A stretch of DNA of 63,999 bases, the filler included, from Stramenopiles sp. TOSAG23-6 (taxonomy: Eukaryota), in assembly GCA_900128565.1 (NCBI GenBank). It is 6 parts of 6 records of this genome, joined end to end, with 100 filler letters (N's around TTAATTAATTAA, not from the genome) between each part and the next. Parts side by side here need not be neighbours in the genome. Positions count along the whole stretch, not along the records: positions 21,690 to 32,427 come from LT636295.1; positions 32,528 to 43,181 come from LT636296.1; 4 more parts are not named here. One strand, given 5' to 3'. A model generated the notes under the pieces. That model was not told the origin of the DNA. It saw only the letters and a program-made list of their open reading frames with translations, and did no database searches. This document shows, one piece after another, positions 1 through 34,343 of the stretch. Position 1 is the stretch's first letter, and each line of letters starts with the position of its first letter. Position numbers and translations under genes: made by a program.

Positions 1-83
1 TTTTTTGTTTTTGTTTTTGTTTTTGTTAGGTACGAAATTTCGTATGAAAAAAAATAAATTCGAAATTGAAAAAAAAAACATAC
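1..83 (-). mobile_element. Introner-like intron 1 (5' part)
   Basis: at|GTATGT…TTCATACGAAATTTCGTACCTAAC; cut by window start. Confidence 0.8.
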
Positions 84-1135
84 ATAGCGGGTAACTTTGC
101 AACAAGAAAAACCAAAAGATAAATGCCGACTCTATTGCGGATAGTATTATGCCCTACTATGGATAATGACTTGGTGGATCTAAGAAGTTGATAGTATGTA
201 GTCATGGTAAATATGACTACAAACAATAAGGGAATATAGTAGCAAAATAACCGAAACATGTATTGTTCAAATGAAAAAAAATATTTTTTTTGTTAGGTAC
301 GAAATTTCGTACGAAAAAAAAAATTGAGATTAAAAACGTACATATCGTTTTTCCTCGTAATCCAACACCATGTTCCTCCCGCATATCCAAGAGCTCCACC
401 TGTCCATGAACCATCTTCTGCCAATGACGTTCCATATCCTCCCCAGAGTGAAAGACATAGAAAAAAAGTTGATAATCCCCAAACAATTCGATGATATTTT
501 GGTGAAGTATGAGATCCATGTTGAAGGGAAAGTCTATTATTAGCAAATCGTAATTCACAACGGATGTGATGTGCAAATACAGCTACCCAGAGAAATGCGC
601 CAACGCCAAAAAATTGCATCCAAGCTGCTGTAATATAACATATTGTTGTTGGGTCTTTTGCGTCAGATGTTCCATCTCCTAAAGTCATTAAAAATGCTAA
701 ACTGTGTAAAGCATCAGTCATTTGGAGAAACATGATTAAACGCGTTGCTAAACCTCCCCCATTTCGATTATTATGGTGAGACTTTGGTGAATGAAGGGGT
801 ATAGTTTGAATTAATTGTTCGTCGTTCGAGTTTAACGTAGCAGGTGCCGATTTTTCCAATTCTCTTTCTTCGTTCGGCGAAGCAATTGGATTAGTGGAGC
901 CTTGTGGGGTGCTATCGATAGATCGAAATGATCGTTGCACTGAGATTTCACTATCATCTTCATTTTCTGTAACTTCGCGTGGTGCTCTCTGAGAAGGTAG
1001 AATTAAAAAATAATATGTACATGTAATAAAGGCAGATGCAGATAACGATAATACCGCTCCAATAGCACTTACAATATGCAGTGTCAAGATCTGTTCTGAA
1101 TCGAAGTCGTCTTCTCTTACTTCAGTCGAATTCAT
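84..1135 (-). CDS. 7-TM GPCR, cAMP-receptor/Git3-like (3' end runs off the window)
   Basis: Exons 1135-342 and 257-84 join in frame (…KNDM|FRLF…). Hydrophobic helices, CY…A and WCWI motifs typical of CAR-like GPCRs. Confidence 0.75.
258..341 (-). mobile_element. Introner-like intron 2, GT-AT, 84 nt
   Basis: at|GTACGT…CCTAAC…AATACAT|g; restores frame. Confidence 0.85.
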
Positions 1136-1449
1136 CGCAAAGCGTATGAATCGCCGTGGAATTATANAGGCCGGTGTANAAGGTTACTGATGTTACAATA
1201 GCGTGTTCTTGGAAAGGTTTAAAAGTCTTGATAGTCAATCTTCAGAATCAACAATTGATTATAGATAATTATTACAATTTACTATTCATGACGATATCGG
1301 ATATGACCTGTTTGACATCAATCAATTTGATGATTGACAAAAAAAATGACGTTAAATTCTTAACTTAATATTTCGTGTTTGTTAGCGTATGAATTTACAC
1401 TATCGTCTTTATTTATTTTTATATGTAAAAAAAATATGAAATTNTTCAC

Positions 1450-4400
1450 TCAAGACCAAATTTCCGAATCTTGTAATCTCAAATCAGCATCCATAGTGCT
1501 GCAGTTATTAATGGCATACAATATCTTTTCATAAGCAGCATCAAAAGTTGTGTATGCAGGAAGTTTGATTGTAAAAAAGCAAGTTTGTGATCTAGGAAAA
1601 TATTCATTTGGGTTCTCTGAGGCACAATCATCTTTCATTGCTTGAATGATAAATGGATGATTCAATGAAGAAGTACTGTGAAGAAATATGTTTCAAGTAT
1701 GAAATTGATTAGGTACGATTTTTTTTTACGAAAAAAAAAAACGAAATTCATGATGAAAATATACAAACGTCAGACGGCATTCGACTACGAGCCCAAGCAA
1801 ACTGTAAGAATTGAACACGCTGTGCTGGACTGAAACGCCGTAAAACTTGCCATAAAAATATGACTTCCCTAGACTCTGTAGAAAGGCCATCTTCATACTT
1901 GGCACAAGCCGAGAGTAAATCCACATCCATGTATTGTAAAGAAATATTTTTTTTTTATTAAAAAAAATATTAGGTACAAAATTTCATATAAAAAAAAATT
2001 GAAATGAAATGAATGATATCAACGTACACGTCAGCAACTCCACAAATTAAGTCGCGCGCTTCGTCTGCAGTATAAAGCTTTAATAATCCTACAGGTACTG
2101 TCATGAGGATACCTGAGAGAACGGCACCCGTTTGAATTTGATTTTCATAACGACGAACTTTTTGAGCAAGAACTCGATATTGTTGTCTATTCGAAAGATT
2201 CACGGATTTCGATAACCCACCAGTGACAAGNGGAACATTTCGTTGATTCCCAGAACTTGANTTTACACAAAAATATGTATTGTGAAAAAATATTTGGTTT
2301 AAAAAATTGTTAGGTNTGAAATTTTCTTTTCTTTTGAAAAACAAATTTAGGTACAATATTCCTGATGAAAACGAAAAAACAAATTTAGGTACAATATTCC
2401 TGATGAAAACGTACTTGAAACAAGTTCTTCCAGTTCTGCCGAATTAGCAGCAGATGCAGTAGCAGATAAAATATCATCTAGTCCTTCATCAATCTGTCGT
2501 AAATTACTGATATCTTTATGTGATCTTTGATTACTATCATACGTCCCNACAAGATGTTCCCAAAAGTAATTAGGCAAATTTAAAGGAATTTGTACTCCAC
2601 AACGTAACGCAACACCAATGTATTGTGAAATTTTAAATTTTGTTTGAAAAAAAATCGTCAGGTACAAAATTTGGTACAAAAAAAACAAATTCGAAATTCA
2701 AAAAAATAAAACATGCATAAGCTGACCCAGAAAACGAAGAAGAGCAAGACGAAAAGGATCATTTGCAGAAGGCGATAATAAACGAATATGNTGCTCACCT
2801 CCACGTTTCATGTTTGCATTAGGTGATGGAACTAACAAATTCAAACAACCTCGATCCTGTAATTCTTCGACAATATCAGTGAAAATAGTCCTAAAAGGAC
2901 CTCCCTGGTCTACAACGCCNTCACCAAAGAGTTTGACGAAAAATGATCTTGGTTGAGGATTTTCTTTAGAACTCCAAGCTTGGCGTAATCCTGAATAGTT
3001 CTTTATATCACCAAGCGATGTCCATAATTGTCCAAACACAGAATATGTTGTGAAAAAATATTTCAGAAAAAATAATTTTTAGGTACAGAATTTCCTACGA
3101 AAAAAAACATAAATTTGAAATTCATCATGAAAACAAACATATTTAATTTCTGTAGCAAGCATGCTATTACTTCCAGGTGTTCCCATGTTGGCAAGATCTG
3201 CAGCCATTTTTCTATCTAAAGAAATTTCTTTAATTGTCATTGGTTTAGAATATTCATCCTCGGGTTCTGGTGTGGCAAGAATGGTACGTGTTTGACTTTC
3301 ATGCCAAGCTGAATGCTTTACAACTGGAAAGAGTAAATGTTTAGCACTAACAAGACCCGTATGACATCCCCATCCATTTTATGTGAAACATATTTGTTTT
3401 TTGGTTTTAAAAAAATTGTTAAGTACAGAATTTTTCTTATGAAAAAAATAAATAAATTTGAAATGATTCATGAAAACGTATATTTCTCATCAAATCACCA
3501 GCTGAAGATAATTTGATGCAATCTAAAGAACCACGAAGTAATACATTCAATTGTAATAAAACTGCCCAACGAAGTCCCGCGTCTCGGCGTCCATCCTCAA
3601 CTAAAACAGGTATATTTTGAGCTGCATTGTATATATCAATTACAGTTAATCCAAATTCACCTACGCGTACTTTGCAACCAGCGCTTTGAGATGCTCTGAT
3701 GAGAGCCTTGTCACGGGACACGGACCAAAATTTACCAAATGCACGTCTTTGAAATTTTTCGATGGACGCTATTCCAGGCACACGTACAATGGAAGGATTT
3801 GTATTTATATCTGTATTTGGAATTTTGTCGTTTGCTACTTTTGGTAGTGCTATCGAATCTGTGACACTGCGAAGTTTCGAACAAAGACTATAATCACGTA
3901 TTGTGAAAAAATATTTTAAAAAAAAATCGTTAGGTACGAAATTTCGTATGAAAAAAAATTAAATCAGAAATTCATATAAAACATACACTTAAATTGTCTG
4001 TTTCTTCACAGTAAAATGGCGATTCTTCAATCACAGTGACATTGGAACCATGAAGAAAGTCTCTTGGTAACATAGAAACCCCAGAAGTACCATCTTCTAA
4101 AATGACGAGGCGATCAATAGAGCCATTTCCAGGTGTTGAACTATTGAAGCTCACAGAACTGTCAATATGTATCCCTAATACTGTCCCTATTATAGTACGA
4201 TTTGCTGCACCATCATTCATCGAAATGTCACCTCCAATGACAGATGGTTCAGACACAACAGCAGGAATAGATATTTTACATCGAGGAAGCAATGAAACAT
4301 GATCTACTTCCATACCTCTAGATCCATCATGTATTGTGGGGAAATATGTTTACGCTTTGAAATTGGTTAGCGTTAATTTTAAAATGAATTTTAAAACGAA

Positions 4401-7400
4401 TCATGAAAACAACAAACTCACAAAAAAAGAAAATCGTTAGGTACAAAATTTCGTATGCAAAATAAATGATGAAAACGTACAACCTCAATTTCTAAAGCTG
4501 TCGTTGGTTCAGCTTGACCTTCTTTCGTTGGGTGTACTAAACCGTGAGATTGACGCCATCGTAACCATTGTTTGTACGCCTTTTCAACAAACTCAAAAGG
4601 AGGAACTCCACCTTTCACTAATGCGCGTGCAGTCGCAATAGCTAATGCAGTATTATAACACCTTTCCTNAACGAGAGGCCGTTCAACTGAAACTGACATA
4701 TCACACAATGTAATTCTATCTTCAACAACAGCAGCATCTGAGGAAAGACCAGTATTACTGCGACCACGTTGCATCATTCTTTGTTTATTACAACCACGGA
4801 AGTAAATAAATGGCCATAAACCTCTCGCGCTTGTCCTAAATCGATGCTCTGGAAAGGAAAATGCTCGACCTAAAGGTCGTCCATTACAAAAGTAAAATAT
4901 TTCACCTGCATCAGTATCCAATAATACACCTATCCTATCACCTGAACCGATAAAAGGACCATAAAAACTTTCTCTGCCCGAGGCGTCGATAGTAGCACGA
5001 AAACTAATCCAAGCCCATCGATATCCTTGAGGAAATTTATCCATAGACACACGCGGCAAACCTACGGTAACACCAATGAATAAAGATCCAGCACCTCGAG
5101 TAGTACTATCAACGATAAACTCCCAATAGTGTGAACCTCTAAGAAGTGGACGATCATGCAATGTGAAAAAAATCAAAAACAATAATTCGTCAGGTACAAA
5201 ACTTTCATACAAAAAAATATTAATAAAATTCATGACGAAAGCATACACCAATGAGAACGCAACCAGGTCCAGATGGGGCAGAGACAGATCGACCATCACT
5301 TGACATGCAAAGATTTGCACTACATCTTTGTGAATTGAGTTGATTTAGCTTTGATGTTGGTGAACATATTGACAAATCTCGCATGGTATTCAGCGCATCT
5401 GGAAAAGCTTTGAGGTTAAGTAACGATTTATGGTACGGATGATTAGGATCTTTCATTAGAGTATGAGATGGATGATACTCCTTGTGTAAAATATGCAAAA
5501 CCTTTGCAACACATCCGCGATTTTGATCTGAGCGAAGCAAATTATCTGTCGTGTTTTTTTTCTTTTGGGTATCATTTATCGTATCACTGGAAATATTATC
5601 TTTGTTCTCTTTGCCAATTTCTTTTGTTGACATTCGAACACTTCGTTTTGAAAAACTATTCACAGGAGCAGGAGGATGACTCAGTCGTAATAATGTAGCA
5701 TGCAAAGGCGATCTTTCACCTCCCCAACTTTCTCTAACAACACGAAGATTCATAAGCGCTGCAATTGATTGTGCACCTAAATTACGAACTTGTAAATCTG
5801 AATCGCCTGTAAAACTTGTCCCCGAAGCGAGACGTAGTACAGAATGACGCATAAGGTACAAACCTTGTTTATCTTCGTCATCTAATTCACTTCCCTCGTC
5901 TAAAGACTTACACGTAAACTTTATGTTAGACGCACGCACAACCGCATTAACGACATCTCCACTACTGAGATGTAATGCATTTACAGCACTTGAATGGGTC
6001 ACTTTGGCCTCCTGCATAACGATCTCTACATTAGATGATGTAATGTCTAAATCATTAATCCGGTTCTGATTATTCTTGGCCTCATTGATACATTTATTTT
6101 TTTTATTTCCATCGATAATTGTTTCTTCGCAACCTTGCTCATCATTATCGCTTGAACTACTCGAAATCCCATCAGACACAGCAGCAATATAATCCATGCG
6201 ATTTCTATTTGTATCATCAACTTTCGAAATTTTCGTATTCCGATCCGACCGTCGTTTTTTCTCTATTTCTACTAATTTTTGCTCATTTTTGAAATCTAAT
6301 TCGCCATCTTTCCAACACTGCATGCATACATCAAAATCACAACCCTGGGTACATCGAAAACTTGTTCCTGTAGAACCACAAATATCACAATAATTAGTTT
6401 GGCGTGGAGCGGATACCATGTTTGTGAAAAAATATATCATACAAAAAAATATCGTTAGGTACGGAATTTTTTTACGGAATAAAAAAAATAGGTAAAACAT
6501 TCGTTATGAAAATGTACATATTATGCATTTTGTTGCATTTGATACCCATATACGAAGATGAAGCAATCGATTCGCGACCTAATCGTTTCTTTGCNATTAT
6601 ACTTGTAATACACAATGCAAAACATAATTTTGCAGCAGATCGTCGCAGTGTCACATCCGCCCAATCTCCGCCACAGTCAATGACGAGATCAACACATTTT
6701 GATTCTATCGCTTGTAGGCGAGTGGGAATGATACAACTTCTTCCTGAATCGTCCAATAACGCTTCTGCTATAATTTGCATACCAATGGTAGCTAATTTTG
6801 GATGTAATCTAGCATTATAACACAACTTTTCGAAAATAATTTTAACACCTCCTCCCCGGGCGACAAGACTTGGCGCACATCGGTGTCTTCCCAAGAAAGC
6901 TTTGGCAGACTTAATTAGTTGATNATTCGTTTCAGATGAAAATAATTTCTGAAGCAACGGTCGAAAAAAGTCATTAGCATCCGGAAGGGNGGGCACTTTA
7001 ATTGTCTTCTCTTTCTTTTGTACATTTTCATTTGCGGCTTTGACTTTTAGAGTTTTCGTCTTTTTGATTTCGTTTTCCTTTTCAGTTGAAGCAACAACTT
7101 GTTTTTTTTGTTCTTTGCAATTTTCTGTAACATCGTTACTAACAGATTTTCTCTCGGTTTTTACTTCCTTATCATTAGATTCCTTAGACATAGCTATTTC
7201 ATTGTCCTTAGATTCCTTAGACAAAGCTATTTCCTTGTCCTTAGATTCATTAGACATGGATATTTCCTTGTCCTTAGATTCATTAGACATGGCTATTTCC
7301 TTGTCATTAGATTCATTAGACAAAGCAAGCGCCATTGCAAGCATTGCCTCTTCTTCTTCGTTCTCACTGTCTTCATTATCATCTTCAACTTGAAGGTTTT

Positions 7401-10400
7401 CGCTTTGAAGCTTGCTTTCAGCAGATTCATTCTTTGATACAGATTCGTTCGTTATAGGTATATTGCTGTGATCATCCGACTCTTGGGATAGTGCAAGGGC
7501 TTTAGCGAGCATTGCTTCTTCATCGTCACTTTCTTCATAATCCGACGTGCAATTAGATTCTACTTTATCAGTATCTTTAGATTCTACTTCATTACTATCT
7601 TTAGATTCTACTTCATTACTATCTTTAGAATCTACATCATTGCTATCTTTAGATTCTACTTCATTACTATCTTTAGATTCAGCCATTACGGCTGCCAATT
7701 GTGAAGCTAATTGCTGCGCAACAACGTCTGAGCTAAAATTATTCACGTAAGTGTCACCAGGGGATTGAGTTGTTGTCGAAATATTAGACAGAGCAGCGGG
7801 GGTCACATTGGTGGGAATGGATGAACATTCAGATACAGAGTCGCCATCTTCATCGTTTTTACTAACCAAATCTTCTTCACCTTTTTTTTCTAAAATATCT
7901 TCAGTCTCCGGATTATTATTATCATCACTATTTTGACCATTTCTTCCATTTTCTTCGCTTTCGTTTTCATCAGCAACATCGGGAAATATATCAAATCTAT
8001 CTCCATTGGCAAAGACAACATCATTCTCCATATTTTCGATGCTATCATCCTTACCATCGTCGTTACACTCTTCTTCAATTCGGCGTATGCATTCAATCAA
8101 GTCATATTGATTCAAACCAAGTGTACTGGGGGTATCATCATTTTCTATTTTGCTGCCATTGATGAAAAATCCTAATGATTCTGGGTCTTCACCAGCACGC
8201 CGCGCAAATACACGAAATACTTTAGACATTTTCGTTCGTTGGAGTACTTTGAAATGGGTTTCTTTTCCGTCAGCCGAATCAAGGACCCTAATTGTAATAC
8301 TATTACTTTGATTACTAATACGATTATTTCGATGTCCAATTCTAGAAGCCCCACCTTGATTCATTCCCAATAATTGCGCGATGTGTAGTTGTGCCATCTG
8401 AGCCATTAGACCTCCTCCACCTTCACCACTTTCCATATTTTCAAAAACAGACATTAAAGTCTCCCCATGTATTTTGGAAAAATATTTCAAAAAAATCTAA
8501 AAAGAATTGTTAGGTACAAAATTTCGTACGAAAAAAAAACTCGAATGTAAAAAAAAATAAAACCTACATCTATATTCCCTCGAAGTCTAGGAGGCATATT
8601 TATCGAATTACTAGCACCGCCAGCACCGACAAATTGGCGATGAAATATATTCAGTCTTCTATTCGTTTCTCTTCGATATGTTCTTGGTTGTGAGGAAGAT
8701 TTTAATTTTTTATTCGCATCTTCCGATTTTTTTTTCGCCTCTGCTTTCACATTGAGCTCTGTCTCACGGTCAAGAAATCTCCCAGATTGATAGGTTTCCA
8801 TTCCAACACAGTGCCAGGAATTATTAGACTTTGTTTTGGTACCCGAAGAGTTCATATATTGAAAACGAAATGTTCTAAATTCCTTTCCCGGTTGGACAAC
8901 AATTGAATTTGACAAACCAAAGCCAATTAATTGTTCTTTCGCCACAGTAAATATATTACTTTTTTCATAGTTATATTCAGGTTTATTACTAGGATCATTC
9001 TTGGATGAAACTAATTCGCTAATAAAACCAATCGAAACATCTGCAGTACATCCATCATTATGGTGTATAAATATTTGTGAATTGATGTATTGTGGAAAAA
9101 TAGTTCAAAAAAAAAAACTAAAATTTGTTAGGTACAAAATTTCGTAAGAAAAATAAATTCGTAATTGAAAAAAATTAAAACATACATACCAATTGTACCA
9201 GGACACATTTTTAATATTCCCTTATACGCAACATTGTCAAAAAAATGATGTGCTAAGTCACACCAATCAATTTTAGAAGAGACCTCAGTTAAAACCGAGG
9301 TGTTGTATTGGACAGGTGCTTCAGTTTTTATTAAACATTTTGAAGCACAAGCTAACAGTAACTCATTTCTTTCTTTCTTTAATTTCATAGAAGAAATCGC
9401 AAGCAAAAGCTCAAAAAGTGATTTTAAGTATGCAGAAGGAGGTTTTGGTCTCTCTTTACATCGTTGTTGCTCAAAACACATCCACAATCGTTCTTCACTC
9501 GGAAGAGATTTTGATATTTCTAAAAGACTCATCCCAATATTCTTTATATCAAGTACTTTCATATTATTTTCATGATCAGACATTGAATTGGTTTGTGCCA
9601 GATTCAACATATCGATTCCAGCATTTAACATTTGTGATATAAGTAAAAACACAGGCTCTTTTAAAGTCATATTAGACCTTTTAGTACAAATGACTAAAGT
9701 GTTACGCAAATCAATACTAGCGCTTACAGCATAAGCAGCTTTGAAACCAATACAATCTTTCTTCTGTGATAAGCATAATAAAGCATCAAGAATGCGTACA
9801 GCGAAGAAAACACGAGGTTCACCAACAGCTGACGCGTCACTTATACCATGCTTTCCAGATACTCGACTATTTGATCGATGTTTGTGTAAATCCCAAGAAC
9901 ATTTCTGATATTTTGGATGAACTGCCGCAAGGCGTAACATTGTGGTACATGTAGCAACTATCGATGGCCCTGCACCCAAAGCAACTAACGTAGGGAGAAT
10001 TCCTAGAGGGTCTTCATTATTTTGCACATAATTCGAATTCGTGTGGATCATCGTGGATACAGACCCAACCCTAGGAGTCATTATGATCGAAGAACGACAG
10101 AGTACAAGTCGTGCAAAAGTAGGTGTCCAAAGTGGTGCGCTTAATACGTCACGTAGACTTGAATTTACTTCGATATCATGAGCTTTTGGAAAAATATTTC
10201 AAAAAAAAATCGTTAGGTACAAAATTTCGTACGCAAAATAAATTCGAAATTGAAAAAAAATAAAACATACATGAGCTTTTGTAAGTCTCAGTATACCAGC
10301 AACAATTCGACGAGTGTGTATCGTAACTAAGGCTTCTTCTAACATACATAGAGCTTCGGATGCATACTCCAAAGAAAGTTTTTCTTCATCCCACCCAACA

Positions 10401-10691
10401 CCTAAACGAGAATTATCGCGTTGTTGGGCTAGATCAGGATTTTCCGAATCACTGTTTTGTTTGTTTTTTTTTGCCCCCGTTACAGCAGCGACAGCAACTG
10501 CAGTGACCAAATCCCATGCTTGTGCCGCGATGAAATTTGCATCTTTAGGGAAATATACATCTGCCATTGGAGCAAACGAACTTGCATTCCCCCTATCAAG
10601 TAAATTATCCTGAGATATTAAAGCAGATGTGTCCGTATATTGTAAACCCGATAAAAGATCCCCCAAAGTCTTCACTCTAAAGCGCTTCAGC
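1450..10691 (-). CDS. Giant HECT E3 ubiquitin ligase with SUMO-like, UIM, ZZ-like, UBA-like and SPRY domains (5' truncated)
   Basis: Exons 10691-10271, 10177-9186, 9084-8568, 8466-6518, 6417-5247, 5155-4481, 4328-3987, 3895-3482, 3375-3139, 3042-2717, 2617-2415, 2274-2028, 1928-1765, 1670-1450 form one frame. HECT motifs DQGGPFR, FLGQLIGVALR, PRSQTCFFTIKLPAY; SPRY GSHYWE…GDRIGVLLD. Confidence 0.88.
1671..1764 (-). mobile_element. Introner-like intron 3, GT-TT, 94 nt
   Basis: tt|GTATAT…CCTAAT…CAGTACTT|ct; gives DVSSLNHP. Confidence 0.82.
1929..2027 (-). mobile_element. Introner-like intron 4, GT-AT, 99 nt
   Basis: gt|GTACGT…AATACAT|g; gives CGVADVDVDLL. Confidence 0.85.
2275..2414 (-). mobile_element. 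Introner-like intron 5, GT-AT, 140 nt, internal duplication
   Basis: aa|GTACGT…AATACAT|at. Confidence 0.8.
2618..2716 (-). mobile_element. Introner-like intron 6, GC-AT, 99 nt
   Basis: at|GCATGT…CCTGAC…AATACAT|t; gives FLGQLIGVALR. Confidence 0.88.
3043..3138 (-). mobile_element. Introner-like intron 7, GT-AT, 96 nt
   Basis: at|GTTTGT…AACATAT|tct; gives KYSVFGQ. Confidence 0.82.
3376..3481 (-). mobile_element. Introner-like intron 8, AT-AT, 106 nt
   Basis: at|ATACGT…CTTAAC…ATAAAAT|gga. Confidence 0.75.
3896..3986 (-). mobile_element. Introner-like intron 9, GT-GT, 91 nt
   Basis: gt|GTATGT…CCTAAC…AATACGT|gat. Confidence 0.82.
4329..4480 (-). mobile_element. Introner-like intron 10, GT-AT, 152 nt, composite
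   Basis: tt|GTACGT…AATACAT|gat; two CTAAC motifs. Confidence 0.78.
5156..5246 (-). mobile_element. Introner-like intron 11, GT-AT, 91 nt
   Basis: gt|GTATGC…CCTGAC…TTGCAT|gat; gives SPRY VLIGDRP. Confidence 0.85.
6418..6517 (-). mobile_element. Introner-like intron 12, GT-AT, 100 nt
   Basis: at|GTACAT…CCTAAC…AAACAT|g. Confidence 0.82.
7140..7330 (-). repeat. 33-bp coding tandem repeat (SNESKDKEIAM-like)
   Basis: About 5 imperfect copies directly after a UIM-like motif in the HECT gene. Confidence 0.85.
7550..7682 (-). repeat. 24-bp coding tandem repeat (ESKDSNEV-like)
   Basis: About 5 copies of ttagattctacttcattactatct. Confidence 0.85.
8467..8567 (-). mobile_element. Introner-like intron 13, GT-AT, 101 nt
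   Basis: at|GTAGGT…CCTAAC…AATACAT|ggg. Confidence 0.85.
9085..9185 (-). mobile_element. Introner-like intron 14, GT-AT, 101 nt
   Basis: at|GTATGT…CCTAAC…AATACAT|c. Confidence 0.85.
10178..10270 (-). mobile_element. Introner-like intron 15, GT-AT, 93 nt, 11-bp flanking direct repeat
   Basis: caaaagctcat|GTATGT…CAAAAGCTCAT|gat. Confidence 0.82.
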
Positions 10692-10745
10692 ATGTATTTT
10701 GGAAAAATATTTCAAAAAAAAAATTGTTAGGTACAAAATTTCGTA
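10692..10745 (-). mobile_element. Introner-like intron 16 (3' part)
   Basis: …CCTAAC…AATACAT|g; contig ends inside. Confidence 0.8.
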
Positions 10746-10866: not shown

Positions 10867-10924
10867 ATTTGCTCTCTCCTTTAAATAAAGTCTTTCGGAG
10901 AAAATTTTCTGTTGAAAAGTCATC

Positions 10925-11628
10925 ATGCCTCGCGAAATTATCACTTTGCAGGTAGGCCAATGCGGTAATCAAATTGGAATGTCATTCTGGGAGCAGCTCT
11001 GTAATGAGCATGGTATTCGTCCAGATGGATCGCTTGAGGACTTTGCACAATTAGGAATGGATCGTAAAGACGTATTTTTTTACCAAGCTGACGACGACCA
11101 CTACATTCCACGTGCACTTATGATGGATTTAGAACCTCGTGTTGTAAAAGGAATTCAAAATGGTCAATACCAGAAGTTTTTCAATCCTGAAAATATTTTC
11201 ATGTCTACTGACGGTGGTGGTGCAGGAAATAACTGGGCAAGTGGTTATCACCAAGCCGAGGGTGTTCATGAAGAATTAATGGACATGATCAACCGAGAGG
11301 CCGATGGTAGTGAAAGTTTGGAGGGATTTGTTCTGTCTCATTCAATTGCTGGTGGGACAGGTTCTGGTATGGGATCTTATCTTTTGGAAAAACTCAATGA
11401 CCATTTTCCAAAGAAACTAATTCAAACGTATTCTGTATTTCCTAATCAAGATGATGCCGATGTCGTCGTACAGCCGTATAACTCCATGTTAACCCTCAAA
11501 CGTCTCACTTTGAATGCTGATTGTGTCATGGTATTAGATAATACCGCACTCAATCGGATTGCCACAGATCGGTTACATATCGCCAATCCAACAGTCAATC
11601 AACTGAATAGTCTTGTAGCGACTGTCAT
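10925..11628 (+). CDS. TUBG1: Gamma-tubulin, first exon only
   Basis: [35 protein letters not shown]. Ends at the intron donor at 11629; the expected continuation is absent. Confidence 0.95.
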
Positions 11629-11720
11629 GTATGTTTTATTTTTTTTCAATTTCGAATTCATTTTTCGTACGAAATTTTGTACCTAACGATTTTTTTTTGA
11701 AATATTTTTTCAAAATACAT
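11629..11720 (+). mobile_element. Introner-like intron 17, GT-AT, 92 nt, joins two different genes
   Basis: Consensus-like copy between gamma-tubulin and PI4K exons. Confidence 0.85.
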
Positions 11721-12655
11721 ATGTTCCTCATTTATGTAGTGCAGAAGATATGGGGCCTTCTCGATTTCCTGTAGATCAAGTTCAACGTATTGCAATATTT
11801 GATGTACGAACAATCAATACTGACAGGCATTCAGGTAATATTCTCGTAAGTAAAGAGAGTACAATTAATCGAAAACTGGTAGAAACTAATTGTATTCGTG
11901 CTCCAAGGTCATCTTCGCTTGTTAACTTTTCTGATGACATGAAGGCTTCTTCAACTATGTGGCCTTTATCGGCGAGATCAACATCATCGCGAGCCTCGAT
12001 ACAAGAGAAAATAAAGATGTCAAACAAAATTGATAAAACGGAACATCAGAAACAATCAAAAGAAGACAATATCTCATGCTCTACTGCTTCACTTAGAGGT
12101 AGCTCAAGTACATTGGCTAAAAGAGATGGACATGACAGTGGTGATATTGTGCTAGTTCCTATTGACCACAGTTTTTGCTTACCTCGTGTAGATTGTTTAG
12201 CTGATGTAACTCTTGACTGGGTCAAATGGCCACAAACAAAACAGCCCATGAGTAAAACATTACTTGACTACATTGAAGGACTTGATGCAGAGGCAGATGT
12301 GAAAATGTTAAATTTCGCCTTAAATGGGGCCATTAAACCTGAAAGTTTGCGAACTCTTCGTGTCGGCACTTTATGGCTGAAAGAAGCTGCTGCGGCTGGG
12401 CTAACATTACAAGTGATAGGTCAAGCTCTATGCAGGGGTGCGGACAAACAAAACGAACCATCGGATATTGAGAAGATCGTAGCAATCGCATTTCAAGCAG
12501 AAAATTGTGCAGGATTTAAAAAAGTAAATGAAGAATCTACACAAGTTTTTATGAGTGCTATTAAAAGAGCAATGAGGATGCACATACAAGTTCTACAAGA
12601 CCAAAACAAAATAAAAGATACAAATGGTACGAATGATACAAAAGAAGTTGTATGA
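11721..12655 (+). CDS. Type II (gamma-like) phosphatidylinositol 4-kinase-like, 3' exon only
   Basis: YVPH…SAEDMGP…IAIFDVRTINTDRHSGNIL…LVPIDHSFCLP…W.WPQ motifs. Confidence 0.85.
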
Positions 12656-30039: not shown

Positions 30040-30303
30040 TATAGAGAATACTAAAAACTAAAAAGATATTTGAAATTCATTTGAAACCAGTAGTGATATT
30101 TTTATCAAGTTGTTGAAATCCTAAAGACTTGAACGTTAAGTCTTTTGTGTGAATGGTTTTTGACAGTTACTGTTAGAATATAAACAGGTTTGTTCCACAT
30201 TTTGGAAAGAAAAAAAGAAATCTCCAGGGCGCAGTTGCAAACCAGGCTATATACTATATAATCATTAAAATTGTAACAAAAATTCATAATAAAAATTTCA
30301 ATT

Positions 30304-32427
30304 TTAATCAATCTCAATTATAACGTTCGAAACTTGGTTAGAGCTGTTATTCCCGATATTCCCACTATCAGAAATATTTTCAACATTTGGTTGTTTAGGG
30401 TTAGGGTTATTCCCACTATCAGAAATATTTTCAACATTTCGTTGTTTCTCTATCTCTGAACGCTTGAACAATAATCTAAGTGGTTTTAGAACAGCACATG
30501 CAAATGGTGGGGGGAACATATTACCAACTAATTTATGGCAATCTGCAATAGCTGTAGATATAGATGTACTTTGGGGACTAGGAACGAATACATGTATTGT
30601 GAAAAAACACGAAATCAAAAAAAATCGTTAGGTACAATATTTCGTATGAAAAATAAATAAATTTGAAATTGAAAAAAAAATAAAACATACATGAGTATCA
30701 GGAACACCTTGGATTGAGGCTCGTTCACGAATTGTTAAAGGTCGTCCACTTGAATAATGAGCATTTTTCTGTTGACAAATAATTGTTGGAGAAATATCAT
30801 CCTTATCGAGTCGTTTTTGAAATCGTTTCATATTAGACCATAGGATATGATTCATCACACCATTCTGTGATGATACATTTGGTCTTAAATATTTAGTATA
30901 TGTAGAGGCATTTTCACAGTTTGTATACGGAGTAACTAAAGTATAGATTTTTTTAATATCATCTATACATTTTGTACTTAAATTTCGCTCTCTATAAAAT
31001 CTAAGAGGATTCCCAAGCCCAGAAAATGCATCTTTCAAAGTTAGAGCTGGTAGAAGTGTACTCCACTCTTCATTATCAGCTTCTGAACGATGATCTTTAC
31101 ATTTTGTTGCAATGTGAATTGAACAACTCTGTGCAGAAAATGTCTGCGCATCCATTGCTTGTAATTGTTTTCTATTAGTAAATCTAGGCTTATATTTATC
31201 AGGATGTTTATGTGTCATCAATGGAGATTTTGGCTGTGGCCAACCTATAGCAGCAGCAAACACAACAACACGTATTCTACTTTGCGGAATACCAAAATTA
31301 CAAGCTTGCATTTGTTTGGTATAGACTTGATATCCTAAATTCCATAACTTGACAGTAATATCAATGTATTTTGGAAAAATATTTCAAAAAAAAATTAAAA
31401 AATTTGTTTGGTACAAAATTATCAAAAAAAAAAAATTCGAAATTAAAAAAAAATAAAACATACATAATCAATGAAGCAGATTTGTCACTGTTTGTTCCTT
31501 GACTTCCCATAATTCCAGAAACATTTTCAATTACAACATAACTAGGACGAAATCGAGCAATACCATCAATAAAATTATCCTTGTATATACAACATCGAGG
31601 ATCATTGATACTTCTACCCTGTTTTGTGAAAAAATATTTCAAAAAAAAATCATTAGGTACAAAATTCCGTACGAAAAAAAAATTCGATTTTTTTGTTGAA
31701 AAAAAAATAAAACATACATTACCAAAGTGTCCTGTTGTATTTGCAACACTCGCTCCTTGACATGGTGGGCCAGCAACGAGAACTGCATATGTTACTTCAC
31801 CAGTCTTTGGAAAATATTTAGAGATACAATTATCATTTTTAATTTTGTGGATTATAGAGTTCATATCCTTTGTTACGTCTAATTTACATATTGTTGAATC
31901 TTTAAAATTGTATTGACTAGTAGCAACTGCAGCATCCCAACTATCAATCGCAAATTTGACATTAAAACCAGCTTGTTTAGCACCAAGTGAAAATCCACCA
32001 GCACCACAAAAAAAATCCATCACATATGGCGGATTCATATCCTTAACTTTATCATAAAAATTTTCTCGTGGTCGCCAAGAATTACCATATAAAAGTGGAA
32101 CTTTCATTACATTATAACAATCAGAATTATTATATAAATGTGGACGATCTTCGCGTCTGAGACAACAAATACCATGTTGGGTCTCAAATGAAGGATCTTT
32201 TAAAGAGTGATCGCTATCAGCTGAATATTCTAATCTATATCGAAAGACATCCGCGTCAGACGATGATAGTTTGGATTGTGCATTACACGAATCGACCCAT
32301 GTACTGTGAATTTTTTTTAAAAATATTTGTTAGGTACAAAATTAACTACAAAAAAAAATTGTGAAAAAAAAAATTCAAAATTCTTTTTTTTTTTTTGAAA
32401 ACGTACATTCCTCATACGTACCAGAAA
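30304..32427 (-). CDS. DNA (cytosine-5) methyltransferase (5' truncated)
   Basis: Exons 32427-32407, 32298-31718, 31618-31464, 31363-30691, 30591-30304. Motifs DFFCGAGG, GPPCQG, ENV, GYQ…FGIPQSRIR, LTIRERASIQGVPD, LVGN. Confidence 0.88.
30592..30690 (-). mobile_element. Introner-like intron 19, GT-AT, 99 nt
   Basis: Gives QGVPDTH|VF. Confidence 0.85.
31364..31463 (-). mobile_element. Introner-like intron 20, GT-AT, 100 nt
   Basis: at|GTATGT…AATACAT|t; branch-like motif reads CCAAAC. Confidence 0.85.
31619..31717 (-). mobile_element. Introner-like intron 21, GT-AG, 99 nt
   Basis: at|GTATGT…CCTAAT…AAACAG|ggt. Confidence 0.88.
32299..32406 (-). mobile_element. Introner-like intron 22, GT-AT, 108 nt
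   Basis: at|GTACGT…CCTAAC…CAGTACAT|gg. Confidence 0.8.
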
Positions 32428-32527
32428 NNNNNNNNNNNNNNNNNNNNNNNNNNNNNNNNNNNNNNNNNNNNTTAATTAATTAANNNNNNNNNNNNNNNNN
32501 NNNNNNNNNNNNNNNNNNNNNNNNNNN
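32428..32527. other. Artificial contig linker
   Basis: TTAATTAATTAA at 32472-32483. Confidence 0.97.
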
Positions 32528-32581
32528 TACGAAATTTCGTATGAAAAAAAAATTTAAATTAGAAATTCATATAAAACATAC
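32528..32581 (-). mobile_element. Introner-like intron 23 (5' part)
   Basis: gt|GTATGT…; contig ends inside. Confidence 0.8.
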
Positions 32582-34004
32582 ACAAATAGATGTTGATAAC
32601 ATTAATTTCATAAATTGTTCAATATCATATTTCTCTAATTTATCTGGCTTTTTTTGTGTATACACAAATGATGGTAAATATGAAGTAAATCCACTTGGAG
32701 GTGGACAAAATGTTGTGAAAAACTTTTGATACGTTTCAGGGTATTTTTCAAGTAATTCTTCATCGGCTTTCTGTATTGTGGAAAATATTTTTTTTTTACC
32801 GAAAAAAAAAATCGTTAGGTACAAAATTTCGTACCAAAAAAAAATAAATTTGAAATTCATAATGAAAACGTACATCAACAATATCTTTAGCTGTAGCATA
32901 TTCATATCGCGTAAGAGGAAACATACTAGACAATGATCTAGCATCTTTATATTCAGTGAAACATCGATTCCATGGAATCATTTTTGTTTTTAATAAAAAG
33001 TCAATTGCTTTTTCCATTGACTCTTTAGATATAAAATCATCTTTTTCCATTGACTCTTTAGATATAAAATTATTCTCTTGATTCATCTCTTCTTCATTAA
33101 CTATGACACCATCAGTCGTATCATCATTTGTATCATCATCAATTACTGTACCTTCGATATCACTAAATAACTTAAAAATACTTTCAAGTCTTTCTACCGC
33201 TGGACCGCTTACAACATGTAGTATGAAAAAATATTTTTTTTTTCGTAAAAAAATCGTTAGGTACAAAATTTGGTACGAAAAAATAAAATTTGAAATTCAT
33301 GATGAAAAACATACAGATGATAAAAGAACTAGAAGTAAAACGACATTTAGTTTTTCTTCTGATGTTTTCTGATCTTTCATATCTTTGTGTTCAACTCCAC
33401 GTTCTAAAAAGCGAATGTTTCTCTCTATAATATGACCAGCTTTTATACCAGTTGGGAAAATATCGTCAAATTCAGTCATAATATAATGGAAAAACTCATG
33501 CGCTGTCGCCAGTCCATTAGATGTCTCAAATTTCGTTATAACAGATGCGGCAACACGGTCAAATTGATCAGTATTGAAATCATTCAATTCTTTTAGACTT
33601 TTCACTTCACTCGGTGCTAGCATACGTTTACTCCAGAATGTGTTTCGAAATATGTCCCTACGCTCAGATTCCTGGTTCTTTCTGTAAAACCAGTTTCCAA
33701 TAAGTCCAATGATGCCAAAGAAACCAAACATTCCCCAAGGCCAAGAAGACGGATCTACAAGGCGTTCACCCCATGTCGGCTCTTTTCCACTATTTTCAGC
33801 TGCTTTACTTGCAACTTGTTTTGAAGATGAACAAAGTCTAGCACGTACTGCAAAATATGGTTCTATATTGTATACAGATAAACGCGATGAGTCACGATAG
33901 AAATACGTGTGTCGTCTAGAAGCTTTCGTGATTCCAAGATGAACTTGTCGGAAATATCTCGTCATTACCGCTCGTGGAACAGCTCTACTCAAGAGATGCA
34001 TCAT
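32582..34004 (-). CDS. Hypothetical protein with mitochondrial-type presequence and one TM helix (3' truncated)
   Basis: Exons 34004-33315, 33215-32874, 32770-32582 in frame; Arg-rich, acid-poor N-terminus; TM MFGFFGIIGLIGNWFY. Confidence 0.7.
32771..32873 (-). mobile_element. Introner-like intron 24, GT-AG, 103 nt
   Basis: at|GTACGT…CCTAAC…AATACAG|aaa. Confidence 0.88.
33216..33314 (-). mobile_element. Introner-like intron 25, GT-AT, 99 nt
   Basis: ct|GTATGT…CCTAAC…CTACAT|gtt. Confidence 0.85.
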
Positions 34005-34343
34005 CTCAATTAAATATTATTCGTACTTAAAACTTTAAAAGTGTTAATTGCCTATGATATCACTTTATGCCGTGCTTTATCGGAAGTAGTAATATGCAAC
34101 CTTGTGTACGAAACGTGAACAACAAGGAAAAGCAAAGAATCGCGCTTAATACTATTTTGACTGACACGAAATCCGATTTTTTTTATCCGTTGAAGAAAAT
34201 TTACCGGAACTCAACTGTCGAAGATGAAACTTACTTTCTTCAGTTATTCTTATAAAATTCTCACGTCTCCGTTCTCTTCACTCAGAGTGTCTCCAGGGGG
34301 TACTACTGTACTAGGTATGGTATAAAGTGACACTCTTGTTGAA

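Follow-up and report, generated by a model that had tools for sequence, protein, structure and literature searches.

How an intron is cut from its transcript becomes a question in its own right when the intron begins with an ordinary GT and ends in AT, and when the two exon bases ahead of it repeat the two bases at its end, so that several cuts would yield the same messenger RNA (mRNA). This question is raised by the window analysed here, a stretch of 63,999 nucleotides (filler included) from Stramenopiles sp. TOSAG23-6 (GenBank assembly GCA_900128565.1), in which many similar introns lie in the sense orientation within unrelated genes. The family does not carry the textbook YAG acceptor, which is found only in copies such as two that lie on the minus strand of a C-5 cytosine DNA methylase gene, at 31619..31717 and 32771..32873, and which an initial annotation of the window had put forward as the copies able to fix the true splice register. 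Considering the evidence as a whole, we think it very likely that these are spliceosomal GT-YAT introns, with a donor that would be read by a U1 small nuclear RNA (snRNA) with a rewritten 5' end and an acceptor that would be set by the intron tail. The reason that introns end in AG is an open question, as is the extent to which a spliceosome can be retuned; this genome holds thousands of introns in which the donor and branch site are those of the textbook and one acceptor base is swapped, with rare AG copies as an internal control.

Anatomy of the intron family and its AG-ending members

The host is a compact, AT-rich eukaryote and appears to be MAST-3-like, the nearest named relative of its RPN1 being a MAST-3 stramenopile protein (78%). 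The core of the family, GTACCTAAC, has 11,047 exact matches in the genome assembly (21.1 Mb), against 179 for a reversed control; the true family count lies below this figure because the assembly has duplicated contigs. Mirror-image and duplicate arrangements typical of amplification chimeras, which inflate genome-wide counts, were seen in contigs C2, C4, C13/C14, C27 and C58. From the window together with 80 genome stretches (847,876 bases with 286 exact cores) we catalogued 256 copies, some at loci that had been chosen because their ends are unusual. Unless another total is given, counts below refer to a strict set of 162 copies from unpicked DNA that passed a strict filter, for which a GT or GC start was a criterion and in which the two flank dinucleotides were left unscored; G at +5 and the pairing of the flanks are not fully fixed by this filter.

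Copies share the layout xy|GTAYGTTTT, a U-rich body, a branch box (CTAAC), a U tract, AATAC and x'y', with a median length of 97 nucleotides. Both flanks are AT in 96 copies, which bears out the annotated claim that repeated flanks allow three registers (GT...AT, TG...CA and AT...AC) to give one mRNA in most copies. The remaining flank pairs are GT/AT (12), TT/AT (9), TT/TT (7), GT/GT (6), AT/TT (4, some of them mis-anchored), CT/AT (4), AT/AG, AG/AG and AC/AT (3 each) and rarer combinations (15). The acceptor dinucleotide is AT in 130 copies and AG in 8; genome-wide, the tail is followed by AT in 3,753 matches and by AA, AC or AG in 283.

The coordinates of both AG-ending introns proved exact. 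The intron at 31619..31717 (minus strand, 99 nucleotides, phase 0) follows an exon ending GGTAAT and runs GTATGT...AAAACAG, while that at 32771..32873 (minus strand, 103 nucleotides, phase 0) follows GTTGAT and runs GTACGT...AATACAG. Each is a normal member with AT ahead of its donor, possessing the family head, branch box and tail and ending in CAG, as had been annotated. Their branch boxes occupy 31652..31660 (GTACCTAAT) and 32814..32822 (GTACCTAAC), with putative branch adenosines at 31653 and 32815, a role suggested by the unchanged pairing region of U2. Recomputing the junction residues, we obtained Asn and Asp for GT...AG and Lys and Glu for TG...CA, in agreement with the annotation. The pair should thus be single T>G variants of the family AT acceptor, with Asn and Asp as the expected residues. 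Pfam PF00145 identifies the frames flanking 31619..31717 as those of the methylase. Homologs are uninformative for both AG junctions of this gene: the four found for the methylase exon are distant, the 31619 junction falls in a gapped loop in three of the four (the three that reach it), and the query excluded 32771.

The further claim that these copies are decisive for the register does not hold. AG copies cannot fix the register of the family because ordinary GT-AG splicing is possible there whatever the other copies do; even AAT in complementary DNA at such a junction would settle nothing for the family, since a GT-AG cut is expected there anyway. AG copies are a useful control, which distinguishes the registers nowhere but at their own junctions; the real register test lies with copies that end in AT and whose flank is non-T.

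A U1 snRNA that matches the family donor

Genes for U5, U2, U1 and U4 lie head to tail within 645 nucleotides of contig C1146 (L118 9-645), with spacers of 2, 23 and 5 nucleotides. These spacers are too tight for separate promoters, and the four RNAs may possibly derive from one precursor; we found no published report of such a cassette, as judged by titles. A second cassette on contig C6122 is identical over 664 nucleotides with diverged flanks, which argues against a sequence error or a decayed copy of U1. This U1 is a full-length Rfam match (E 8e-12) that carries U2>A, U5>G and C9>A relative to the consensus of that family, and owing to these three changes its first 11 bases are the exact complement of CAU|GUACGUUU. 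An Rfam search of the assembly found only these two U1 copies, and none of the 24 exact matches to the canonical U1 motif (21 in a control) is a U1. The branch-pairing region of U2, the U5 loop and the ACAGAGA box of U6 all match the Rfam consensus, and alterations in these were rejected as the adaptation.

The donor sequences follow the changed U1 closely. In the GT register the mean number of Watson-Crick pairs is 9.07 of 11, plus one wobble, as compared with 6.87 for a consensus U1 in the same register and 2.6-3.7 for the changed U1 in four neighbouring registers. The predicted duplex is stronger with the changed U1 (-9.3 kcal/mol vs -2.0 kcal/mol; better in 155 copies). Positions +4 to +6 read TGT or CGT in 142 copies, and C is enriched at -3 (48 copies, p=9e-5). 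In 132 copies the intron tail would outdo a consensus U1 in pairing with the donor, and in 2 it outdoes the changed U1, which offers a possible reason for the change: a rewritten U1 could out-compete the tail for the donor.

A pattern search of metagenomes for relatives with the same U1 gave 44 matches (39 Rfam-scanned, all 44 read by script), among which were one U1 from a different kind of organism and no family cores. On an unrelated metagenome contig (L154 2999-3158) we observed a full-scoring U1 (136 bits) carrying C9>A together with U5>A. We take this contig to be plant-like from its U1 upstream element; it shows that variants of this kind occur elsewhere, perhaps as minor copies.

Splice register

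Reading frames and residues, as read from genomic DNA, support removal of the family introns; six RNA runs hold part of the region. If a copy is excised so that a single flank remains, 30 codons stay open to either side of the junction in 137 copies, as against 58 for unspliced and 27 for antisense sequence, and only 24-40 copies keep the frame if the acceptor is shifted by 1 or 2 nucleotides. Excision of GT...AC with both flanks kept was rejected, leaving the frame intact in 30 of 255 copies against 201 of 255. Among copies with unequal flanks, a GG|GC...AT copy in a transporter gene yields, in the GT/GC register, a Gly that is present in 116 of 149 homologs (20 gaps); in the other registers the residue would be Val or Met. 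At a TT/AT copy in a carboxylase gene the residue is Ile, matched by I, I and V in three of the four alignments shown, and AT...AC would make it Asn; this copy and one with GT/AT flanks in a MatE gene rule out AT...AC. Across 48 unequal-flank junctions stops number 0 for GT...AT, 1 for TG...CA and 2 for AT...AC. Within the window, the copy at 5156..5246 (minus strand, GT|GT...AT) lies at the start of a SPRY domain, and the annotated replacement of its Gly by Asp under AT...AC is confirmed; the peptide there is VLIGD, which fits what we take to be the SPRY motif. Taken together with the U1 fit and with G at +5 facing the unchanged U6 box, the conserved residues of the transporter and carboxylase genes make the GT...AN register of the initial annotation, in the form GT...AT/AG, very probably the true one.

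A database protein, P0245 (L036 2775-5200), is an exact match to the first exon and then runs into the intron; thus a public gene model misses AT-ending introns. Two candidates outside ordinary splicing were also considered. DNA-level excision of the kind known from ciliates was rejected on the strand bias, branch box and U1 fit, and a stable fold as the cut signal was rejected, with z of -1.32 to +0.59 in eight copies, though the ends pair in 5 of the 8 predicted structures.

Choice of the acceptor

An AG lies between the branch and the end in 27 of 107 AT copies, mostly 10-16 nucleotides from the branch adenosine, and its use could keep the frame in only 6 of the 27. YAT decoys are found in the same interval in 108 of 119 copies. 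Since nearer AGs and YAT decoys are seemingly passed over, the acceptor appears to be set by the tail and its position, and a G at -1 would not be required. The skipping of AGs may have a simpler basis, in that the nearest may sit too close to the branch.

No factor that reads AT was found in the search for U2AF1, which was not among 15 CCCH matches. Prp8 was tried as the adapted factor and rejected: 31 of 1,160 near-invariant columns differ (2.7%), within the 0.09-4.69% seen in the homologs (53 of 120 kept after near-duplicate removal), and it is no outlier. In this otherwise ordinary Prp8, whose gene holds no family core, changes at near-invariant sites cluster at human 1246-1254 (Q1246N, S1251A, T1254A).

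Origin of the family

The family probably descends from a transposon, to judge from its flanks and ends: a non-autonomous element with short inverted ends and a two-base target duplication. The flanking bases covary (G, p=1.5e-4; T, p=1.4e-6), and besides the AT/AT pairs a further 18 copies have other duplicated pairs, these matching non-AT flanks pointing to a two-base duplication. The terminal inverted repeat is short, with complementarity over the first six positions in 91-152 copies. An excess of flank variation at third codon positions is not evident.

Five matches to the transposase family PF13359, two of them distinct, were found. One belongs to an intact-looking PIF/Harbinger-type element (L183 503-3609, contig C2432) with two genes, a transposase and a second, convergent open reading frame (ORF), its repeats being GGCC and its flanks TAA/TTA; between the two genes lies a short branch core resembling that of the family. 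The second has no family-like ends in its 2.5-kb contig. A supposed helicase motif elsewhere (L025) was discarded, its gene giving a PAN match only.

Alternative explanations

Because most copies would give the same mRNA if cut between TG and CA, through some mechanism independent of a GT donor, this register deserves consideration; TG stands at the start in 144 copies and the short inverted ends would suit it. We nevertheless give it very little chance of being right, for U1 there pairs at 2.6 of 11 positions, the start varies (GG in 7, AG in 6, CG in 5), +5 is not G, Val replaces the conserved Gly of the transporter copy, and the sense strand is the one that carries the branch box and the U tract. 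Equally hard to credit is a cut at AT...AC by the minor spliceosome or by a U2-type AT-AC route. AT and AC are known paired termini in the available text of one report (PMC13326754), and A and C/T ahead of the flank are well conserved; against this, the start would be GT, TT or CT in 38 copies, a stop would arise in the MatE gene, Asn would replace Ile and Met would replace Gly, and U1 fits two bases later. An inconclusive search did not find U6atac, and U11 and U12 were not searched for.

Accepting a GT...AT register, AT could still be a tolerated, poor acceptor in a family that is drifting back to AG, as the annotation had suggested, or nearby cryptic AGs could be used; we consider this distinctly unlikely. 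AG mildly exceeds AC and AA among the first 100 of the 283 variant tail matches listed (46:27:27), and A is favoured at -2 (5' non-A with 3' A in 31 copies vs 7 for the reverse, p=1e-4). Yet AG makes up about 3-5% of ends, and AG copies are not more diverged (2.62 core mismatches, n=16, vs 2.64 for AT copies, n=179). The case for drift is further weakened by AG on both flanks in 4 of 15 AG copies and by copies in which the last flank base differs, whose intron ends in T in 11 and in G in 3. As for cryptic sites, branch-proximal AGs are in frame no more often than chance (11 of 29), an in-frame AG occurs within 6 nucleotides downstream in 9 of 130 copies, and none occurs within 60 nucleotides in 53 of 130. 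The family may also, rather improbably in our judgement, consist not of mobile copies but of resident introns homogenised by selection on long splice signals with U1, or of introns spread by reverse splicing that carry their own AT end. It is in keeping with this that all 162 bodies differ even with homopolymers collapsed, leaving no identical pair, that no transposase with matching ends was found in the one family searched (PF13359), and that the 5' flank is other than AT in 34 of 130 AT-ending copies, which would follow if the AT came with the intron; the first two of these, and the fact that no empty site was seen, also count directly against mobility. On the other side, matching non-AT flanks (TT/TT 7, GT/GT 6, AG/AG 3, AA/AA 1, TG/TG 1) call for a duplication, the palindromic blocks that copies share internally go beyond the known signals, and the family is clumped, with no copy at the Prp8 locus.

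Several points weigh against spliceosomal GT-YAT removal by a rewritten U1, the account that we favour. Its junctions come from frames and residues in genomic DNA. Frame fixes the acceptor only modulo 3, a shift of +3 preserving it in 133 copies; only one junction separates GT...AT from TG...CA at a conserved residue, a second in the transporter gene being unalignable, and the sole TG...CA stop sits at a copy with a doubtful 3' end. The strict set is biased towards consensus tails, such that the share of AG may be underestimated, and several of its AT/TT rows are mis-anchored. The U1 scores 54.1 bits, below the cut-off of 69.5, with a U1A-binding loop (L118 349-508) that departs from the Rfam consensus, and the assembly may be incomplete, in which case another U1 could be missing. 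Finally, a candidate reader of AT was recovered neither in the U2AF1 search nor in the Prp8 comparison.

A proposed mechanism

In our model, the major (U2-type) spliceosome would remove these introns from a GT donor to a YAT acceptor, with a few ending in AG, GT, TT, AA or AC. The donor would be read by U1, whose rewritten 5' end, present in the gene sequence, can pair to CAU|GUACGUUU, and then by the unchanged U6; the branch box CCTAAC would pair with the unchanged U2. The acceptor would be set by the family tail and its place about 31-45 nucleotides after the branch box, and not by the first AG or YAT, as the apparently skipped decoys suggest. The originating element would have duplicated two target bases, usually AT, the second copy of which became the acceptor.

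It is tempting to speculate that a mobile element has in this way re-tuned the spliceosome of its host: three U1 bases, including the exon-pairing C9, would read the end of the element and the duplicated AT, and a YAT in the tail would be preferred over a nearer YAG. We rate this larger proposal at somewhat short of an even chance. If true, GT-AT would be the working splice code of the lineage and not a tolerated defect. The three-base change in U1 makes a direct test possible, and gene models in the lineage can be wrong where AT-ending introns are missed, as in P0245.

Other copies and genes in the window

The methylase gene (30300..34016, minus strand, ends approximate; PF00145) is split by seven family introns. 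In addition to the AG-ending pair, these comprise AT|GT...AT copies at 30592..30690, 31364..31463 and 32299..32406, the 5' half of a copy with a GT flank at 32528..32581 that is cut off by an assembly gap, and a CT|GT...AT copy at 33216..33314, for which AT...AC gives Tyr and the other two registers give Ser (all minus strand).

A region at 37-10711 (minus strand) with ubiquitin-like, SPRY and HECT domains and about 16 family copies is probably one large gene. Its copies, all on the minus strand, include TT|GT...TT between two HECT-domain exons at 1671..1764 and GT|GT...GT at 3896..3986, both with matching non-AT flanks; GT|GT...AT adjoining HECT-domain exons at 1929..2027; and an AA|GT...AT copy with an internal duplication at 2275..2414, which ends in AT and separates GT...AT from TG...CA. 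Donor variants with otherwise normal family anatomy occur on the same strand, namely a GC donor at 2618-2716 and an apparent AT donor at about 3380-3480. The direct repeat between exon end and intron end at 10178-10270 (minus strand) spans 10 bases instead of the usual two, which points to template switching or a local conversion event. No family copies occur in the neighbouring ORFs, which have 1,600-2,600 codons; insertions are thus clumped. On the plus strand at 10916-12655, a tubulin GTPase domain frame is followed by a family copy (11629-11720) and a PI3/PI4-kinase fragment. Simple excision of this copy gives no long open frame, and the arrangement may reflect a fusion, a wrongly placed boundary or chimeric assembly.

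Comparison with known systems

We found no published account of a MAST-3 or GT-AT intron system, as judged by the titles and abstract openings of the papers listed, in a search that covered neither supplements nor most subscription journals, and a prior report is possible. The main text of a paper on MAST single-cell genomes has neither 'splice' nor 'splicing' and uses 'intron' twice (PMC5778133), and the introner survey lists, in its main text, only AG and AC 3' sites, with no occurrence of 'MAST' or 'stramenopile' (PMC12130899).

As far as the available texts describe them, introners of Micromonas and other transposon-derived introners resemble the present family as high-copy look-alikes on the sense strand of unrelated genes, among which non-AG acceptors occur (PMC3879977, PMC12130899). 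The Micromonas classes IE-B and IE-D, with GT-TG ends, have 25 and 6 members, whereas here a non-AG acceptor is the rule for thousands (PMC3879977). ISL2EU elements of the PHIS superfamily share a two-base AT target duplication and terminal inverted repeats, differing in that they target A|AT|T and have repeats starting GG; the present context leans to C-AT-G, with ends starting GT (PMC4482050, as far as its available text goes). C precedes the flank at -3 in the 48 copies noted above and G follows at +1 in 83, both above background. An ISL2EU-type DDE/THAP transposase with a YqaJ gene was not found inside family ends among the matches to PF13359, the one transposase family searched.

The closest parallel in the acceptor is provided by Fritillaria borealis and F. 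pellucida, in which, according to the portion of the report available, AT-ending introns removed by U2-type splicing make up 34% and 44% of the total, and a YAY triplet stands at the acceptor as well as ahead of the donor (PMC13326754). In Fritillaria the main classes start with AG, the 5' end of U1 is strictly conserved and there is a duplicated U2AF (PMC13326754); the present family retains the GT donor, has much more uniform ends and is accompanied by a change in U1 itself. For U1, the precedent lies in Entamoeba and Mastigamoeba, whose U1 5' end has changed so as to pair fully with an atypical donor, one of its bases being an A by which the pairing reaches +7; according to the accessible text, a change of this kind was found neither in Micromonas or Thecamonas nor in any of 69 yeasts (10.1101/2022.06.08.495308). 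The changes in those amoebae concern intron-pairing bases, whereas the present U1 also alters the exon-pairing C9, in a manner that fits the AT flank (10.1101/2022.06.08.495308). AT acceptors, co-evolution of U1 and introners are thus each of a known kind, to which the change in U1 described here is a notable addition.

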